The notes: generated by a model not told the origin, from the letters alone. A DNA stretch of 38,429 nucleotides from Oscillospiraceae bacterium (GCA_045616105.1 JAZLGD010000153.1:1-38429); one strand, 5' to 3'; positions 32,182-36,174 are shown, numbered from the stretch's first letter. Made by a program: numbers and translations.

Positions 32182-32307
32182 CCAGTTCACCTCAACTTTG
32201 TTATTGTGAGATCATTTTACCATAAGCTGTATTGAAACGGAATATCTTTTTGGAATATTTCACTCTCTCACCTGTTTTGAGCTAAGTGTATAAGCTCTCC
32301 ACCAAGA

Positions 32308-32335
32308 CAAAAAACCACACCTTTCGGTGTGGTTT
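32308..32335 (-). terminator. Copy of the tRNA-Ala terminator hairpin (GAAA loop in the minus sense)
   Basis: aaaaaaccacacc tttc ggtgtggtttt. The same hairpin occurs at 34172..34199 and 36026..36053. Confidence 0.7.
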
Positions 32336-32343
32336 TCAGGTTT

Positions 32344-32404
32344 TGGTGGAGACGGAGAGGATCGAACTCTTGACCTCATGAACGCCATTCATGCGCTCTC
32401 CCAA
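32344..32404 (-). pseudogene. tRNA-Ala 3' fragment (D-loop to CCA, 61 nt) lacking the 5' acceptor strand and D-stem
   Basis: It matches 36058..36118 at 60/61 positions (one change in the anticodon loop). It diverges at ...ctctcccaa|gtcgtacgg. Confidence 0.9.
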
Positions 32405-32567
32405 GTCGTACGGTTGCGCACCTCAATCGATGATGTGAGGTTTGGTGCGAGATATAAGATAAGTGGCATATTTTTAAAGGAAAGCATATTCTAGTATGGT
32501 TCATTATTATTTTAGGTAAAATGCTTTAGGGGACCTCCCCCCCAATCTTCCTAACTTGAGGACAGCC

Positions 32568-32596
32568 TTGACACATGCACCCATTGGGTGTATTAT
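32568..32596 (+). promoter_or_regulatory. Promoter of module A with an embedded 13-bp palindromic operator
   Basis: TTGACA, a 17-nt spacer, then TATTAT. The spacer contains CACCCA-T-TGGGTG (32578..32590). Confidence 0.65.
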
Positions 32597-32614
32597 TTGC
32601 TTGAGGTAACAAAT

Positions 32615-33265
32615 ATGGATATTCGTGAATTAAGATCAAAATTAGGATACACTCAGAACGAATTTGCTTTACGGTATAATATCCCTTTTCGAACTGTACA
32701 GAACTGGGAATCTGGCATGCGCACTCCCCCCGATTATGTTATAAAACTACTTGAGGAGCGTATTATGACAGATCTAATTAATCGAAAGACAGTGGCACTT
32801 CCAAAATACGATCCTCAAAAGATAGACCTTCCAAAAAGACGTGATTATATTGGTGCAATTTCCTGGCTTAAGGCAGTACGCAATTGCTTGGGCGAGTCCG
32901 TCGTTTTTGCCTTGGATGAAGCGCTTATGTGTCATGGTAGTTTTGGCGGGCGCAGTGATGAGTACATCGTCTGGGTTTATGGAGATAATTCCGTTGCTAG
33001 ATATAATGGTGTGGTTGTACTTGGAAATCGGATAAGCCCTTACAATGTAAAAGAAAAAAACGGCTTGCGATATACCGATTTTAATCGAACATTATCCGAT
33101 GCCTTTGCTAACGAATCGATTTTGGATATGCAGGGTATTACAGAAGCAGTCAGTAGATATTATTATCGTAGTGGAAACAGTTTTGATGGTATTTCTGTGG
33201 CTCCTGAGTTCCAAGAAAGATTTGAAGAGCTCGCAAATGAAGCCATAGATTATTATAGCAACTAA
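32615..33265 (+). CDS. XRE-type HTH protein with a C-terminal domain of about 150 aa; putative regulator/antitoxin (AbiEi-like role)
   Basis: 216 aa from MDIRELRSKLGYTQNEFALRYNIPFRTVQNWESGMRTPP (RBS gaggt 8 nt upstream). By recollection, the C-terminal part (ALDEALMCHG...IVWVYG...GLRYTDFNRTLSDAF) resembles AbiEi C-domains. Confidence 0.6.
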   Translation: MDIRELRSKLGYTQNEFALRYNIPFRTVQNWESGMRTPPDYVIKLLEERIMTDLINRKTVALPKYDPQKIDLPKRRDYIGAISWLKAVRNCLGESVVFALDEALMCHGSFGGRSDEYIVWVYGDNSVARYNGVVVLGNRISPYNVKEKNGLRYTDFNRTLSDAFANESILDMQGITEAVSRYYYRSGNSFDGISVAPEFQERFEELANEAIDYYSN

Positions 33266-33277
33266 GAAGGTGGTATT

Positions 33278-34012
33278 TTGAATCTATCAGCGGAAGAAAG
33301 AATAATGTACGAAGTAATGATGGCCATATATAACAGTGGCATTCCCATGAACTTCAAGGGATCAATGGTGCTGAAAGCCTGCTTGGCTGAAGCAGGTTAT
33401 TCTGAAGATACACGCCATACCACCGATATTGATGGTAACTGGTATTCAGATGTCCTGCCGTCGGGAGAACAAATGGTTGAATCCTTACAGAAGGCACTAA
33501 CAAGAAATAATATTGACCTGAATGTTAGCATTTATAGAATGTATGGGGAAGGACGCTCCGCAGGGTTTGAACTGTCGGATAATTCTACGGGAGAGATTCT
33601 TTTCTCAATGGACATTGATGTAAATCGCCCCGTTGCATCCACTAAAATATACGAGATCGAAGGAATCAGATTTCTTGGGGTATCTCCTTCGCAAATGATA
33701 TCCGATAAAGTTTCAGTCCTCTCCACTGATAAAGTTTTCCGACGAATAAAAGATGTTGTAGATCTGTATTATATCTCAAAAGTTTTCACTTTTAATAAAA
33801 CAGATATTGTTCAAACACTTAAAGATACTGGTAGATCTCTGGATTCATTTAACGGTTTTCTTCACAGAACCGATGATTTAAGACATTCTTATGATAAATT
33901 CCGTTTTGCAGGAGATATAAACAAACCAAGCTTTGATGATGTGTACCTTACTGTAAAGGAATTTATCCGTGATATTCTCCCGAAAGAGCGGTCTCATGAT
34001 CTGGAAAGATAA
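33278..34012 (+). CDS. DUF1814/AbiEii-like nucleotidyltransferase (putative type IV toxin / abortive-infection effector)
   Basis: 244 aa with a Pol-beta NTase signature: KGSMVLKACL...TRHTTDIDGNW, a second acidic block FSMDIDV, and an AbiEii-like motif DKVSVLSTDKVFRRIKDVVDLYYI. The start is TTG after gaaggtgg, and it sits 12 nt after the upstream stop. Confidence 0.65.
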   Translation: MNLSAEERIMYEVMMAIYNSGIPMNFKGSMVLKACLAEAGYSEDTRHTTDIDGNWYSDVLPSGEQMVESLQKALTRNNIDLNVSIYRMYGEGRSAGFELSDNSTGEILFSMDIDVNRPVASTKIYEIEGIRFLGVSPSQMISDKVSVLSTDKVFRRIKDVVDLYYISKVFTFNKTDIVQTLKDTGRSLDSFNGFLHRTDDLRHSYDKFRFAGDINKPSFDDVYLTVKEFIRDILPKERSHDLER

Positions 34013-34039
34013 GCAGCAAACGCAAAAGAATGCGTCTTC

Positions 34040-34072
34040 AGCCGATAAGTATAACTGTTCATCGGCTTTTTT
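34040..34072 (+). terminator. Terminator of module A
   Basis: agccgat ... atcggct tttttt. Confidence 0.7.
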
Positions 34073-34203
34073 GTGAAAATATGAAAAGCAAGTGTTTTCA
34101 ATCCACTCCATATATTTGTGGCATAATAAAATCATTATTTGAAGCCAGCGGATTATTCTTTTCACCAAAACAAAAACCACACCTTTCGGTGTGGTTTTTG
34201 TTT

Positions 34204-34264
34204 TGGTGGAGACGGAGAGGATCGAACTCTTGACCTCATGAATGCCATTCATGCGCTCTCCCAA
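34204..34264 (-). pseudogene. tRNA-Ala 3' fragment (61 nt), second copy
   Basis: It is identical over 61 nt to 36058..36118. It has the same breakpoint (...ctctcccaa|gtcgtatgg) and is preceded by the terminator copy at 34172..34199. Confidence 0.9.
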
Positions 34265-34427
34265 GTCGTATGGTTGCGCACCTCAATCGATGATGTGAGG
34301 TTTGGTGCGAGATATAAGATAAGTGGCATATTTTATAAAGGAAAGCATATTCTGGTATGGTTCATTATTATTTTAGGTAAAATTTTTTGGGGGACCTCCC
34401 CCCAATCTTCCTAAATTTGGGGCAGTC

Positions 34428-34456
34428 TTGACATATGCACCCATTGGGTGTATTAT
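34428..34456 (+). promoter_or_regulatory. Promoter of module B with the same palindromic operator
   Basis: TTGACA, a 17-nt spacer, then TATTAT. CACCCATTGGGTG lies at 34438..34450. Confidence 0.65.
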
Positions 34457-34474
34457 TTGTTTGAGGTAACAAAT

Positions 34475-35125
34475 ATGGATATTCGTGAATTAAGATCAAA
34501 ATTAGGATACACTCAGAACGAATTTGCTTTACGGTATAATATCCCTTTTCGAACAGTACAGAACTGGGAATCTGGTATGCGTAATCCCCCCGAGTATGTT
34601 ATAAAGCTACTTGAAGAACGTATTATGACAGATCTAATTAACCGAAAGACAGTGGTACTTCCAAAATACGATCCTCAAAAGCTAAGCCTTCCAAAGAGAC
34701 GCGATTATATTGGTGCAATTTCCTGGCTTAAGGCAGTACGCAATTGCTTGGGAGATTCCGTCGTTTTCGCCTTGGATGAAGCTCTTATGTGTCATGGTAG
34801 TTTTGGCGGACGCAGTGATGAGTACATTGTCTGGGTTTATGGAGATAATTCCGTTGCTAGATATAACGGTGTGGTTGTACTGGGAGATTGGATAAGCCCC
34901 TACAATGTAAAAGAAAGAATCGGCTTGCGCTATACCGATTTTAATCGAACATTATCCGATGCCTTTGCTAACGAATCAATTTTGGATATGCAGGGTATTA
35001 CAGAAGCAGTCAGTAGATATTATTATCGAAGTGGAAACAGTTTTGATGGTATTTCTGTGGCTCCTGAGTTCCAAGAAAGATTCGAGAAGCTCGCAAATGA
35101 AGCCATAGATTATTATAGCAACTAA
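34475..35125 (+). CDS. XRE-type HTH regulator/antitoxin-like protein, paralog B
   Basis: 216 aa, with 11 amino-acid differences from copy A by hand count. Confidence 0.6.
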   Translation: MDIRELRSKLGYTQNEFALRYNIPFRTVQNWESGMRNPPEYVIKLLEERIMTDLINRKTVVLPKYDPQKLSLPKRRDYIGAISWLKAVRNCLGDSVVFALDEALMCHGSFGGRSDEYIVWVYGDNSVARYNGVVVLGDWISPYNVKERIGLRYTDFNRTLSDAFANESILDMQGITEAVSRYYYRSGNSFDGISVAPEFQERFEKLANEAIDYYSN

Positions 35126-35137
35126 GAAGGTGGTATT

Positions 35138-35872
35138 TTGAATCTATCAGCAGAAGAAAAAATAATGTACGAAGTAATGATGGCCATATATGACAGTGGC
35201 ATTCCCATGAACTTCAAGGGATCAATGGTGCTGAAAGCCTGCTTGGTTGAAGCAGGTTATTCTGAAGATACACGCCATACCACCGATATTGATGGTAACT
35301 GGTATTCAGATGTCCTGCCGTCGGGAGAGCAAATGGTTGAGTCCCTGCAGAATGCACTAGCAAGAAATAATATCGGTCTGAATGTTAGTATTTATAGAAT
35401 GTACGGGGAGGGTCGCTCCGCAGGGTTTGAACTGTCGGACGACTCCACGGGAGAAATTCTTTTCTCAATGGACATTGATGTAAATCGCCCCGTTGCATCC
35501 ACTAAAATATACGAGATCGAAGGAATTAGATTTCTCGGAGTGTCTCCTTCGCAAATGATAGCCGATAAAGTTTCAGTCCTCTCCACTGATAAAGTTTTCC
35601 GACGAATAAAAGATGTTGTGGATCTGTATTATATCTCAAAAGTTTTTACTTTTAATAAAGCAGATATTGTTCAAACACTTAAAGATACTGGCAGATCTAT
35701 GGATTCTTTTAACGGTTTTCTTCATAGGCCCGATGATTTAAGGCATTCTTATGATAAATTCCGTTTTGCAGGAGATATAAACAAACCAAGCTTTGATGAT
35801 GTGTACCTTACTGTAAAGGAATTTATCCATGACATTCTCCCGAAAGAACGGTCTCGTGACATGGAAAGATAA
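35138..35872 (+). CDS. DUF1814/AbiEii-like nucleotidyltransferase, paralog B
   Basis: 244 aa, with 14 amino-acid differences from copy A by hand count. The NTase motifs are unchanged. Confidence 0.65.
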   Translation: MNLSAEEKIMYEVMMAIYDSGIPMNFKGSMVLKACLVEAGYSEDTRHTTDIDGNWYSDVLPSGEQMVESLQNALARNNIGLNVSIYRMYGEGRSAGFELSDDSTGEILFSMDIDVNRPVASTKIYEIEGIRFLGVSPSQMIADKVSVLSTDKVFRRIKDVVDLYYISKVFTFNKADIVQTLKDTGRSMDSFNGFLHRPDDLRHSYDKFRFAGDINKPSFDDVYLTVKEFIHDILPKERSRDMER

Positions 35873-35899
35873 GCAACAAGCACAAAAGAATACACATTT

Positions 35900-35933
35900 A
35901 GCCGATGAGTAATTATGATCATCGGCTTTTTTT
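35900..35933 (+). terminator. Terminator of module B
   Basis: agccgatga ... tcatcggct ttttttt. Confidence 0.7.
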
Positions 35934-36025
35934 AATTAAAAGCACGTGCTCTCAATCCACTCCAAATATTTGTGGCTTAATAAAATCATTTTTTGAGCGT
36001 AGCGGATTATTAGCTCCACCAAAGC

Positions 36026-36053
36026 AAAAACCACACCTTTCGGTGTGGTTTTT
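36026..36053 (-). terminator. Terminator of the intact tRNA-Ala gene
   Basis: In the minus sense it reads AAAACCACACC GAAA GGTGTGGTTTTTG. Confidence 0.75.
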
Positions 36054-36057
36054 GTTT

Positions 36058-36133
36058 TGGTGGAGACGGAGAGGATCGAACTCTTGACCTCATGAATGCC
36101 ATTCATGCGCTCTCCCAACTGAGCTACGCCCCC
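36058..36133 (-). tRNA. tRNA-Ala (anticodon GGC), CCA encoded
   Basis: In the minus sense it reads GGGGGCGTAGCTCAGTTGGGAGAGCGCATGAATGGCATTCATGAGGTCAAGAGTTCGATCCTCTCCGTCTCCACCA. It is 76 nt, folds as a cloverleaf by hand, has the G3:U70 Ala identity pair, and has anticodon loop AUGGCAU. Confidence 0.9.
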
Positions 36134-36145
36134 AGCTGCAAAGGT

Positions 36146-36174
36146 ATTTTAGCAGACGGGGGGAATATTGTCAA
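36146..36174 (-). promoter_or_regulatory. Sigma-A-type promoter of tRNA-Ala
   Basis: In the minus sense it reads TTGACA, a 17-nt spacer, then TAAAAT, about 12 nt before the tRNA 5' end. Confidence 0.6.

Follow-up and report, generated by a model that had tools for sequence, protein, structure and literature searches.

A tandem of recombinase-less toxin-antitoxin cassettes at a tRNA-Ala gene of a gut Oscillospiraceae bacterium, probably moved by large serine recombinases

An uncultured gut Oscillospiraceae bacterium carries, at its tRNA-Ala(GGC) gene, a tandem of two related ~1.8-kb cassettes that lack a recombinase. With a probability of roughly 60%, we read the locus as an array of non-autonomous cassettes, similar to CIMEs or psi-SCC elements, that would be moved by mobilizable elements encoding large serine recombinases (LSRs) and using the D-loop of the tRNA gene. 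The features of the locus are listed in coordinates of the window, the whole stretch of 38,429 nucleotides that was analysed.

32293-32343, minus strand: tRNA-downstream sequence past the displaced 3' part, with a palindromic terminator hairpin pairing with the acceptor end (-33.1 kcal/mol, z = -7.3)
32344-32404, minus strand: tRNA-Ala 3' fragment no. 1, matching tRNA positions 16-76 at 60/61 nt; private change at position 37
32405-32450, plus strand: arm of unit 1, putative P-type half-site, in tRNA orientation GAGGTGCGCAACCGTACGAC-TTGGG/AG, with a weak hairpin after it
32568-32596, plus strand: cargo promoter of unit 1 (TTGACA-17-TATTAT)
32615-33265, plus strand: antitoxin/regulator gene, copy 1 (HTH_3, 3.9e-8; PADLOC AbiEi, 3e-4)
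33278-34012, plus strand: AbiEii/MenT-type nucleotidyltransferase toxin gene, copy 1, 244 aa (PF08843, 24.9 bits at a cut-off of 22.5 bits)
34041-34073, plus strand: intrinsic cargo terminator of unit 1 (GCCGAT...ATCGGC, then a T run)
34153-34203, minus strand: right end of unit 1, element-borne T' block (copy of the tRNA-downstream sequence) with palindromic terminator
34204-34264, minus strand: tRNA-Ala 3' fragment no. 2, 61/61 identical
34265-34310, plus strand: arm of unit 2, putative P-type half-site, one base different from arm 1
34428-34456, plus strand: cargo promoter of unit 2 with an operator-like inverted repeat
34475-35125, plus strand: antitoxin/regulator gene, copy 2 (11 aa differences from copy 1, dN/dS = 0.135)
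35138-35872, plus strand: AbiEii-type toxin gene, copy 2 (14 aa differences from copy 1, dN/dS = 0.12)
35901-35934, plus strand: intrinsic cargo terminator of unit 2
36007-36057, minus strand: right end of unit 2, T' block with the 23-bp palindromic terminator of the functional tRNA
36058-36133, minus strand: intact tRNA-Ala(GGC), D-loop TTGGGAG at 36112-36118
36146-36174, minus strand: tRNA gene promoter (TTGACA-17-TAAAAT, upstream TG)

The intact tRNA gene is the single ARAGORN prediction, and a repeat search recovered its positions 16-76 twice more, at spacings of 1860 and 1854 bp; the sole change, in fragment no. 1, lies at anticodon-loop position 37. Every copy breaks at one nucleotide, directly after ...CTCTCCCAA, past which the intact gene reads on with CTGAGCTACGCCCCC and the copies with GTCGTA(C/T)GGTTGCGCACC. 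This anatomy was described in the original prediction and is confirmed here, as is its claim that the interval from the lipoprotein gene to plsY is free of recombinases; neither a relaxase nor a transposase was found there, and the rest of the 38-kb window contains nothing of these three kinds except a DDE transposase fragment (147-743). The tRNA terminator is a hairpin (-38.8 kcal/mol, z = -10.4) with a 23-bp palindrome of which the 3' acceptor end of the tRNA itself forms part. The repeated block, first estimated at ~110 bp, is real but longer: because the right end of the element stays homologous to the chromosome downstream of the tRNA for ~35 nt beyond the terminator, the shared block amounts to ~135 nt. 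Its copies had been described as nearly identical, which holds for the tRNA part (98.4% identity between the units) but not for the part before the terminator, where copies 1 and 2 are only ~54% identical. Pairwise alignment of the units, a check proposed with the prediction, gave 93.3% identity overall, with 94.1-94.8% in the coding sequences, 92% between the arm and the first gene, 73% in the 3' untranslated region and 97.8% over the arm's first 46 nt (dS 0.18-0.21, dN/dS 0.12-0.135). Homogenization of the blocks against the functional tRNA is not needed to explain this pattern, as only the tRNA part and the putative recombinase half-site are conserved and the rest diverges.

Strains of the species are polymorphic for the cassettes, and the search for an empty tRNA-Ala site and alternative alleles yielded both. 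Contig L017 equals the window minus 32405-36118 and encodes an identical Der protein; its empty site includes the chromosomal-type sequence found at 32293-32343. In L002, a unit of the unit-1 type directly adjoins the tRNA, and L001 contains unit 1, a tRNA fragment and then an AAA-ATPase/GNAT cassette. L005 carries the unit-2 type in the leftmost position, preceded by a different host terminator context and followed by a cassette, 9.7 kb or longer, that contains E1, JAB, Band-7 and transglutaminase genes; the E1/JAB genes behind the same break represent a ubiquitin-like defence system. Other cassettes lie behind this break in L020 and L021, all of the same species. The earlier view of the repeats as footprints of site-specific, tRNA-regenerating insertion is supported.

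Cassette identity exceeds flank identity: unit 1 and L001 are 99.94% identical with flanks at 98.7%, and unit 2 and L005 99.83% with the flank at 96.26%. Because the two copies stand at dS ~0.2, while strains with flanks 1.3-3.7% apart carry counterparts that match each copy at 99.8-99.9% identity, the sequences favour separate acquisition of the two cassettes over duplication in situ. Stepwise accretion of two related non-autonomous elements, one of two origins originally suggested, thus fits better than the other, a single insertion followed by unequal crossing-over at the ~110-bp flanking repeats and later divergence with the tRNA part conserved. Such a duplication would explain the perfect head-to-tail order and near-equal periods; direct repeats of 61 to ~135 nt are adequate RecA substrates, and single-copy alleles could arise by deletion between them. 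We nevertheless consider it unlikely, since the divergence between the copies far exceeds that of the flanks among strains while the species still holds an empty site, the unit-2 type is leftmost in L005 in another terminator context, and L152 shows a third type in a host whose tRNA-Ala differs in sequence. A small sample already points to units 1 and 2 each clustering with copies from other genomes and not together.

The junction between units 1 and 2 was found in the window only, all other junction types being seen independently in other contigs. An assembly chimera, in which unit-1 and unit-2 strain alleles were joined across shared repeats, could produce such a unique junction in a population that holds both single-type alleles, and related metagenomic contigs habitually end in these repeats. 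It is nonetheless a very improbable explanation: the arrangement in L001 implies that multi-cassette arrays are real, the 6-7% difference between the units does not fit a collapsed or duplicated repeat, and the T' block specific to unit 1 runs continuously into fragment no. 2 and its arm over ~110 nt.

Separate acquisition is further supported by L152, from a different host, in which the 3' part preceding a third AbiE type is of the 'alt' tRNA-Ala type (60/60), the host terminator is another one, and the break falls at the same nucleotide as in the window. The right end of this cassette retains a window-type T' block, and the tRNA/terminator block thus travels with the cassette. The L152 crossover is located 5' of tRNA position 27, a position indicative of site-specific and not homologous recombination.

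The sequence at the breaks forms an inverted repeat around TTGGG-AG-CCCAA of the tRNA D-loop, and the reciprocal half was found in four other contigs. L014 and L016, both from this species, as well as L022 and L028 have tRNA nucleotides 1-22 fused to CCCAAG(C/A)AATACAGTAACACACCCC, with a complete element-borne tRNA-Ala ~60 nt past the junction; in L022 and L028 this is followed by LSR, ParB and relaxase genes, and additionally by NikA in L022. Junctions between a tRNA 3' part and an arm lie ~115-170 nt from an LSR gene in L036, L038 and L049. All half-sites share one register, G(G/A)GGTG(T/C)G(T/C)(T/A)A-N9-TTGGG/AG. The P half-site of L005 and the P' half-site of L014 match at 21/25 positions as inverted repeats around AG; the two come from the same sample, which does not prove the same strain, and all comparison contigs are short metagenomic assemblies. 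A PWM trained on 10 independent half-sites and scanned over 76,818 window positions ranked arm 1 first (16.0) and arm 2 second (14.4), both exactly at the junctions, although these scores of 14-16 lie below the 20-28 of most training half-sites. We infer from these matches that the recombination would be performed by an LSR, with AG as the probable crossover position, the D-loop TTGGGAG as core and the tRNA gene doubling as attB.

The original prediction had implied the classic tyrosine-integrase mechanism, in which case the cassettes would be island remnants inserted by an enzyme whose gene lies at another genomic location or belonged to a neighbour since lost. Such enzymes serve the majority of tRNA-associated islands and of integrative mobilizable elements (IMEs) in tRNA genes (PMC5704250), and the tRNA 3' end is regenerated by the repeat. 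At the unrelated loci L033 and L095, tRNA fragments spanning positions 31-76, with the break in the anticodon arm, do occur 6 kb away from the intact gene. Here, however, the break is at D-loop position 16, away from both the anticodon loop and the T-loop, the reciprocal junction retains no more than tRNA nucleotides 1-22 before an inverted copy of the arm motif, and the arm matches the half-site family found beside LSR genes. No tyrosine integrase was seen in any of the array contigs examined; LSR genes instead adjoin these junctions at five independent loci. A tyrosine integrase is accordingly a highly improbable agent.

In the LSR-based model that we prefer, the D-loop of tRNA-Ala(GGC) would be the attachment site of IMEs that encode LSRs. 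Each cassette comprises a putative P-type half-site, a toxin-antitoxin operon of AbiE/MenT type that is self-contained in its promoter, putative operator and terminator, and its own tRNA positions 16-76 with the terminator and ~35 nt further. On insertion, the tRNA gene would be completed by the element's own part, and the host's former 3' part would end up at the far end, fused to the half-site as an attR-like P-core-B' junction; tRNA fragment no. 1 is read as this displaced host half (B'). As the cassettes encode no recombinase, it would have to come from a resident or visiting IME. By one route, cis-mobilization, an IME would enter the intact tRNA beside a cassette, excise via the distal attR, take the cassette into a new host and later depart alone. 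By a second, the LSR would act directly on the hybrid site of the cassette. The window lacks a B-P' (attL) site, so that an LSR acting canonically could not excise the cassettes in their present form. AbiE cassettes of this type are not physically linked to any LSR gene, and the 38-kb window contains none. Among the examined contigs, no IME was recovered whole with its P and P' ends, and scanning 5-10 kb did not reveal the far ends of the elements in L022, L027 and L028.

The T' block is nearly the same in AbiE unit 2 and the L021 cassette despite their different cargo, which is not predicted by cis-mobilization. The finding would suit a cassette that is a substrate in its own right: it would circularize, an LSR in trans would insert its hybrid site (P half-site, core and tRNA 3' part) directly into the D-loop, and arrays would grow as an integron captures cassettes, with the tRNA 3' part and T' block as the element's own conserved end. 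The shared architecture of every tRNA-proximal cassette seen in the species, the block that moved with its cassette in L152 and the many relatives that are unit-length 1.8-kb contigs with ends within the repeats point the same way. We still rate this as unlikely, since it needs recombination of an attR-like hybrid site with attB, which canonical serine integrases are reported not to perform (PMC3783163). In addition, a circular junction is indistinguishable from an internal tandem junction, and the cassettes have no oriT or relaxase for transfer.

The proposed array formation with LSR-encoding IMEs has several counterparts. The composite SCCmec islands of Staphylococcus use the large serine recombinases CcrAB or CcrC and regenerate the 3' end of their target, and psi-SCC elements without ccr genes depend on Ccr from another cassette. 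Tandem cassettes between direct repeats, a regenerated 3' end and recombinase-less members are thus shared with our locus, whereas SCCmec targets the protein-coding rlmH (orfX), has 15-18-bp repeats and is much larger. In the tRNA-associated hotspots of Prochlorococcus tycheposons, elements and integrase-less satellite cargos accumulate between partial tRNA repeats as they do here, but with tyrosine recombinases, other tRNA break positions and a marine cyanobacterial host. CIMEs at ICESt1/ICESt3 of Streptococcus thermophilus, for which the accretion concept was described, are small elements, decayed or non-autonomous, that have neither an integrase gene nor transfer genes (PMC5704250). They similarly lie in tandem at a specific site, bounded by core-containing direct repeats, and are thought to move only along with a related autonomous element. 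They differ in their tyrosine integrases, ~27-bp repeats and location at the 3' end of a protein-coding gene or tRNA; our cassettes have a tRNA D-loop site, a repeat of 61 to ~135 nt, a putative LSR and an element-type half-site at one boundary only, the other being the regenerated tRNA. The ssrA islands of Dehalococcoides use a CcrB-like serine recombinase, DsiB, and form tandem arrays separated by gene-3'-end repeats; fifteen lack the integration module and were proposed as CIMEs (PMC3146451). Common features are a serine recombinase module, a structured small-RNA target gene with restored 3' end, tandem arrays and a ParB-domain gene, part of the Dehalococcoides integration module and also present in the LSR IMEs. 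The Dehalococcoides islands, however, target the tmRNA T-loop with a 20-bp repeat (here 61 nt of tRNA-Ala from the D-loop, or a whole replacement tRNA gene), have two recombinases, DsiA and DsiB (here a single LSR with relaxase), and carry reductive dehalogenases rather than a toxin-antitoxin/defence module.

The cargo of each unit consists of an HTH/AbiEi-like antitoxin gene and a gene for a nucleotidyltransferase toxin of AbiEii/MenT fold. AbiE/MenAT type IV toxin-antitoxin systems are two-gene operons in which the regulator/antitoxin precedes a DUF1814 nucleotidyltransferase toxin. This gene order, the catalytic residues (G28 and D50-x-D52) and an inverted repeat in the promoter are shared. 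The repeat of unit 1, ATGCACCCATTGGGTGTAT at 32575-32593, lies between the promoter hexamers, is conserved in L030 and is likely the operator. Antitoxin copy 1 has 216 aa counted from ATG (the mechanical ORF begins at GTG 32588), with an XRE-type HTH_3 N-terminus, in contrast to the winged helix of AbiEi in known AbiE systems; its C-terminal part alone matches AbiEi models, weakly. The toxin had no PDB match at the sequence level, and its best structural matches, TglT/MenT3 and MenT4, align at 12-14% identity. Addiction or abortive infection is the most likely role of the operon, a function in phage defence being presumed. AbiE operons recur as accessory modules of LSR IMEs (L006-L013, L030 and L031), and the terminator hairpin of the unit 1 cargo is also found after AbiEii in L030.

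The sole tRNA gene of the window encodes tRNA-Ala(GGC), and an Rfam search matched this tRNA alone. BLAST and direct reading show two further copies of its positions 16-76, each with the terminator hairpin and some sequence past it. These tRNA fragments bound two tandem cassettes, unit 1 on the left and unit 2 on the right:

36058-36133, minus strand: intact tRNA-Ala(GGC), called by ARAGORN
36007-36064, also 34160-34210 and 32298-32350: terminator palindrome, its outer arms being the tRNA 3' acceptor end TGGTGGAG and the mirrored downstream sequence CTCCACCA
34153-34264: recurrence with the tRNA part 61/61 identical
32293-32404: second recurrence with the tRNA part 60/61 identical, the single change being anticodon-loop position 37
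34264/34265 and 32404/32405: attR-type junctions, each a recombinase half-site (P) plus the tRNA 3' part
34435-34453 and 32575-32593: inverted repeat ATGCACCC-ATT-GGGTGTAT, in the -35/-10 spacer of the cargo promoter

The three copies share ...CTCTCCCAA and split at one and the same base, past which the gene reads CTGAGCTACGCCCCC and the copies read GTCGTA(C/T)GGTTGCGCACC. The periods between repeats are 1860 and 1854 bp. In tRNA identities, break base and periods alike, the original prediction described the repeats accurately. It had also described the bounding blocks as almost identical, which is true of the tRNA part, the hairpin and the element sequence just past the break (the arm), but not of the rest. 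The two units are 93.3% identical overall; by segment, the tRNA part agrees at 60/61, the first 46 nt of the arm at 45/46, the stretch from the arm to the first gene at 92%, the coding sequences at 94.8 and 94.1%, the 3' untranslated region at 73% and the pre-terminator stretch at ~54%. The direct repeats flanking both units measure 61 to ~135 nt (61 nt of tRNA plus ~75 nt downstream). Termination of the tRNA relies on a nearly perfect palindrome of 23 bp, of which the acceptor end of the tRNA itself forms part (-38.8 kcal/mol, z = -10.4).

Of the ORFs lying between one fragment and the next, the HTH/AbiEi-like and AbiEii genes alone match a protein family. Each unit comprises a strong sigma-70-like promoter (TTGACA-17-TATTAT), the two genes with a 12-nt gap, and an intrinsic terminator. 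Gene 1 (216 aa from ATG) has an XRE-type HTH N-terminus (HTH_3, PF01381, 3.9e-8), and its C-terminal part matches the PADLOC AbiEi models weakly (3e-4 and 9e-4). The inverted repeat in the promoter is kept in a 78%-identical homologue (L030) and is probably the operator of the HTH antitoxin. Gene 2 (244 aa) matches the AbiEii nucleotidyltransferase family PF08843 at 24.9 bits, above the gathering score of 22.5, and PADLOC AbiEii at 2e-7; residues G28, D50 and D52 of the catalytic G[SG] ... DxD motif are invariant across 28 homologues. A PDB sequence search with the toxin gave no match, and relatives came from a fold search alone, in which the AlphaFold model (pLDDT 88.6) was closest to the M. 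tuberculosis DUF1814 toxins TglT/MenT3 (1.5e-7) and MenT4 (Foldseek, 1.5e-7 to 1.5e-5). Gene order, nucleotidyltransferase toxin and catalytic motif are like those of AbiE/MenT type IV toxin-antitoxin systems, whereas the N-terminus of the AbiE antitoxin, which also has an antitoxic C-terminal domain, is a winged helix and here is of the XRE-type HTH_3 kind. The cargo is a predicted AbiE/MenT-type toxin-antitoxin, with putative autoregulation, toxicity and abortive infection. Comparison of the window copies gave a dN/dS of 0.12-0.135 and a dS of 0.18-0.21; purifying selection thus maintains the two, and neither is a recent duplicate of the other.

The remaining genes of the window are housekeeping genes (fumarase, GS/GOGAT, AmtB-PII, CarAB, DapABH, aspartokinase and a cobalt ECF transporter). 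No recombinase was found anywhere in the 38-kb window except a DDE transposase fragment at 147-743, an ORF at the left edge beside fumarase (DDE_Tnp_1_6, 1e-24) that is unconnected with the tRNA locus. The host is an uncultured Oscillospiraceae whose species is absent from the GTDB species representatives; the plsY of the nearest representative, an Oscillospiraceae MAG, is only 75% identical. Exact look-ups with the window plsY, lipoprotein and AbiEii copy 2 gave no match, and contigs of the same species were retrieved via exact-protein look-ups.

An empty tRNA-Ala site, which the original prediction had proposed to seek among relatives, is present in the same species: contig L017 reads der-plsY-tRNA-terminator-lipoprotein-CbiM and equals the window minus 32405-36118. 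This empty site likewise carries the tRNA terminator palindrome. In L002, a unit-1-type cassette directly adjoins the intact tRNA. The order in L001 is lipoprotein, fragment, unit 1 (99.94% identical), fragment and then a different cassette, whose arm is related (GTCGTACAGTTGCACACCC...) and whose genes encode a DnaA-like AAA ATPase, a GNAT protein and a membrane protein; in L005 it is lipoprotein, a different native terminator, fragment, unit-2 type, fragment and a third kind of arm. The unit-2 type of L005 is 99.83% identical to window unit 2, while the flank is merely 96.26% identical. The third kind of arm is a perfect 23-bp hairpin followed by at least 9.7 kb with E1(ThiF), JAB, Band-7 and transglutaminase-like proteins. 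This cassette (L005 5781-15527), which also encodes several orphans and whose transglutaminase-like proteins are of the transglutaminase-core type, looks like a ubiquitin-like conjugation defense system; for one of its proteins (275 aa), a homologue search of 5.8 billion sequences returned itself alone. Two further contigs of the species, L020 and L021, hold yet other sequences behind the same right-end block.

Stepwise accretion and unequal-crossover duplication had both been put forward for the tandem. The empty site, the single types and the unit identities above that of the flank speak for the former, and the two window copies are best explained as separate acquisitions. Duplication in situ is decidedly unlikely, given the dS of 0.18-0.21 and unit copies that are 99.94 and 99.83% identical across strains, above the 96.26% of the L005 flank. 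Most contigs of this AbiE family (L003, L004, L153-L159 and others) are 1-2 kb long and end inside tRNA-fragment repeats, so short-read assemblies shatter the arrays systematically. As a caution for methods, such repeats leave arrays under-assembled, and public assemblies probably understate the number of copies. Unit-length contigs (L003, L004, L153-L155) were considered as circles and rejected, as they start and end inside repeats without k-mer overlap. The junction of a cassette circle would be the same as the junction inside the tandem. That the window array is itself an assembly chimera is very improbable.

Contig L152 has yet another AbiE type, the third, in a different genomic context; its identity is 95% with unit 1 and 94% with unit 2. 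The fragment on the left of this cassette matches another tRNA-Ala(GGC), the 'alt' type, at 60/60 positions. The host terminator also differs, and the break base is the same. The right end of the cassette retains the window-type T' block (the tRNA-downstream sequence with the palindromic terminator) up to an interrupting candidate IS. Judged from these sequences, the tRNA 3' part and terminator of a cassette belong to the unit that moves, and insertion is site-specific, with the L152 crossover placed 5' of position 27, the first base separating the two tRNA types. Insertion by a RecA Campbell event via the 61-nt homology was rejected as the main route because the distal fragment of L152 is purely host-type right up to the break. 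The interrupting sequence, a candidate IS with a transposase-like ORF of at least 194 aa (L152 2570-3221), splits the terminator hairpin at the right end of the third AbiE cassette type.

In L014 and L016 of the same species, and in L022 and L028 of other Oscillospiraceae with the same der-plsY synteny, the tRNA is cut the opposite way. Its first 22 nt (...GCTCAG(T/C)TGGGAG) are fused to a conserved element end, CCCAAG(C/A)AATACAGTAACACACCCC in L014, L016 and L022 and CCCGAATCATTCCTTTACACACCCC in L028. These elements carry a complete replacement tRNA-Ala(GGC) (L014 12095-12170; L016 9651-9726; L022 3974-4049; L028 11675-11750) ~60 nt past the 25-nt P' half-site, and the host gene keeps its first 22 nt only, next to plsY. 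The replacement seen in the window's own species is the 'alt' allele, 84% identical to the native tRNA. Behind the element-borne tRNA, L022 and L028 encode a large serine recombinase (LSR), a small ORF, ParB and a relaxase, with NikA in addition in L022, a gene set that by sequence is that of an integrative mobilizable element (IME). The LSR combines Resolvase, Recombinase and Zn_ribbon_recom domains and is adjacent to the site in autonomous members. The core shared in the IMEs with a whole tRNA spans 6-7 nt, and the core TTGGGAG is common to the window repeats and the LSR IME junctions.

Read toward the break, cassette arms and element ends fall into one register, G(G/A)GGTG(T/C)G(T/C)(T/A)A-N9-TTGGG, then AG. 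The P half-site of the large L005 cassette (GGGGTGTGTTATCATATTAC-TTGGG) and the P' half-site of L014 (reverse complement, GGGGTGTGTTACTGTATTGC-TTGGG) match at 21/25 as an inverted repeat around AG, in an attP reconstructed from separate contigs of one sample. The TTGGG-AG-CCCAA inverted repeat has the architecture expected of a serine-recombinase attP, and the pattern of LSR attachment sites, ~40-50 bp of imperfect inverted half-sites about a central dinucleotide, is present here. LSRs cut with a 2-bp stagger at the central dinucleotide, here putatively AG. At LSR sites, identity between element and target is limited to the crossover dinucleotide, whereas the window cassettes have repeats of 61 to ~135 nt. 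A weight matrix built solely from ten half-sites of other loci ranked the window arms first and second of 76,818 positions (16.0 and 14.4; next best 11.9), and both positions fall exactly on the junctions.

A metagenome scan with the pattern CATTCAWGCGCTCTCCCAAGT returned mostly intact tRNAs because the pattern was too loose: 105 of the 120 loci were intact tRNA-Ala genes with a CACTTGGGAG D-loop, and 15 were true junctions. Three of the latter (L036, L038, L049) have an LSR gene ~115-170 nt from the junction of tRNA 3' part and arm, encoding an enzyme ~50% identical to the LSRs of L022 and L028. A junction scan with TCCCAAGTCGTANNGTTGCNCACC gave 0 matches among GTDB species representatives, and the window junction had no match in viral contigs. 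Locus L070 was rejected as an element, with ordinary metabolic genes behind the arm and no clear element boundary. Relatives of the AbiE operon (72-78% identical) recur as an accessory module on IMEs of three LSR clades (L006-L013, L030, L031); those of L006-L013 are not in tRNA, and their right ends diverge past CCCTTAGAACACGTGCCCGA. No contig links an LSR gene with an AbiE cassette of this type or joins L005 to L014, and the contig ends of L005 and L014/L016 do not overlap. The far ends of the LSR IMEs L022, L027 and L028 showed no tRNA 3' fragment or P motif within 5-10 kb, and no complete IME was therefore reconstructed.

We favor, with a probability of about 60%, the general reading that these are non-autonomous cassettes moved by LSR IMEs. 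The intact tRNA would serve as attB, each junction of fragment and arm would be an attR (P-core-B', where B and B' are the host tRNA halves), and the cassettes would travel as passengers. An IME would insert into the intact tRNA beside a cassette, excise via its own attL and the distal attR, transfer (IMEs carry relaxase and oriT), insert in a new host and later leave alone by excision. The product would read new host tRNA 5' part, old 3' part, T', cargo, and P arm joined to the new host 3' part, an order that matches the observed architecture, that of L152 included. Such cis-mobilization is the route requiring canonical LSR reactions only. A motif scan of the window gives two P sites only and no P' half-site or attL, the tRNA-proximal boundary being B-B' (intact tRNA or fragment plus T'), and the cassettes are therefore unable to excise as they stand.

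A point against cis-mobilization is the T' block, which is almost identical between cassettes of different cargo (AbiE unit 2 and L021) and fits better with a block that is the cassette's own conserved end and with insertion via a hybrid site. The same near-identity favors a variant in which the cassettes inserted directly via the hybrid site; we consider it rather unlikely, as pairing of a hybrid site with attB is reported to be absent for canonical serine integrases (PMC3783163). It is also unlikely, and a more speculative proposal, that Clostridia IME LSRs run an integron-like cassette economy at the tRNA D-loop, in which small recombinase-less cassettes would circularize and insert into the intact tRNA via the hybrid (attR-like) site to give strain-specific defense arrays (AbiE, E1/JAB ubiquitin-like, AAA ATPases). 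One end of each cassette would then be a P half-site and the other its own copy of tRNA positions 16-76 with the terminator. Integron arrays have intI, attI and promoterless cassettes bounded by attC, whereas the cassettes here have no integrase gene, their own promoter and terminator, and tRNA-fragment boundaries. Transfer RNA 3' ends are the domain of tyrosine integrases (PMC5704250). A tyrosine-integrase island is nevertheless scarcely credible at this locus, where the repeat starts at D-loop position 16 and not, as for such islands, at the 3' end or in the T-loop or anticodon loop. Neither the window nor the scanned cassette ORFs of L001 and L005 gave a tyrosine integrase.

The closest known systems are CIMEs (cis-mobilizable elements), the Dehalococcoides ssrA islands and the psi-SCC cassettes of SCCmec, with AbiE/MenAT the nearest for the cargo. 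Like CIMEs, the window units are without their own integration/excision and transfer genes, and the recombination core within their direct repeats is also that of a related autonomous element. CIMEs retain both hybrid sites (attL and attR), whereas the units have the attR type only, and the locus is therefore not filed as a strict CIME, though it is CIME-like in its working. The CIME/accretion scheme has been described for tyrosine-recombinase elements (PMC5704250). It has likewise been put forward for the ssrA islands of Dehalococcoides, which are of the serine-recombinase kind and of which 15 are without an integration module (PMC3146451). Serine-recombinase IMEs are described as having very short flanking repeats and disrupting dispensable genes (PMC5704250). 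The serine-recombinase elements of this study appear to cut an essential tRNA in its D-loop and to compensate with 61 nt of tRNA or a whole replacement gene. Targeted literature searches gave no description of D-loop-cutting serine-recombinase elements of this type, which is not proof of absence.

If LSR IMEs do move the cassettes, tRNA genes would be hotspots beyond tyrosine integrases, and a widespread family of Clostridia mobilizable elements would cut the tRNA D-loop and repair it with 61 nt or a whole gene. For LSR mining in genome engineering, the D-loop would be of interest as a landing site that occurs in nature, is highly conserved and has a defined family of half-sites, and the mechanism would account for the spread of tiny defense/addiction modules without mobility genes among gut Oscillospiraceae strains and species. 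Such cassettes can be searched for by tRNA positions 16-76 followed by GT-N7-GTTAC-N-CACCCC.

Several minor features accompany the junctions. In several cassettes, the outer part of the P half-site (…CACACCCC) is paired with a downstream inverted copy in a hairpin (L005 5781-5832; L070, oriented, 973-1025; window 32414-32450). L005 has a perfect hairpin of 23 bp, and the AbiE arms have a weak one; the pairing is kept in the window arms and in that of L001 despite their different sequences. The hairpin could be an insulating terminator or a site for an accessory protein. Past the same break, L066 (1078-1146), L100 (1489-1560), L071 and L074 have arms of a second family, GTTAG(C/G)C(C/T)T(T/C)C(G/A)CGATA.... 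ARAGORN calls fragment plus arm in L066 and L100 a 69-72-nt tRNA-Ala with a shortened D-arm, and an LSR C-terminus sits just beside the arm in L066; the family may represent element-borne tRNA of an unusual kind, or the site of another recombinase. The IMEs L027 and L022 are 92-96% identical in shared regions, and L027 (5718-7188) has an extra pair of HTH_3 and DUF6036 (nucleotidyltransferase-like) genes just upstream of NikA. AbiE pairs sit at the same NikA-side position in other IMEs, and toxin-antitoxin-like modules seem to be exchanged there. In L160 (IMG/VR, 2133-2182), a tRNA-Ala 3' fragment lies behind a 70%-identical LSR. Its break is at position 27, in the anticodon stem instead of the D-loop, and could reflect a second integration system that acts on the element-borne tRNA. 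Finally, a ~100-nt conserved stretch 3' of the tRNA terminator (L005 3693-3858; L020, reverse complement, 250-400; L152 590-700) holds a degenerate tRNA-Ala piece in opposite orientation (...CATGAGGTCAAGTGTTC...), and in L020, 25 nt left over from the 3' end of the 'alt' tRNA lie beside IME-derived sequence. Both the degenerate piece and the L020 remnant resemble traces of earlier insertions that have since decayed at this locus.
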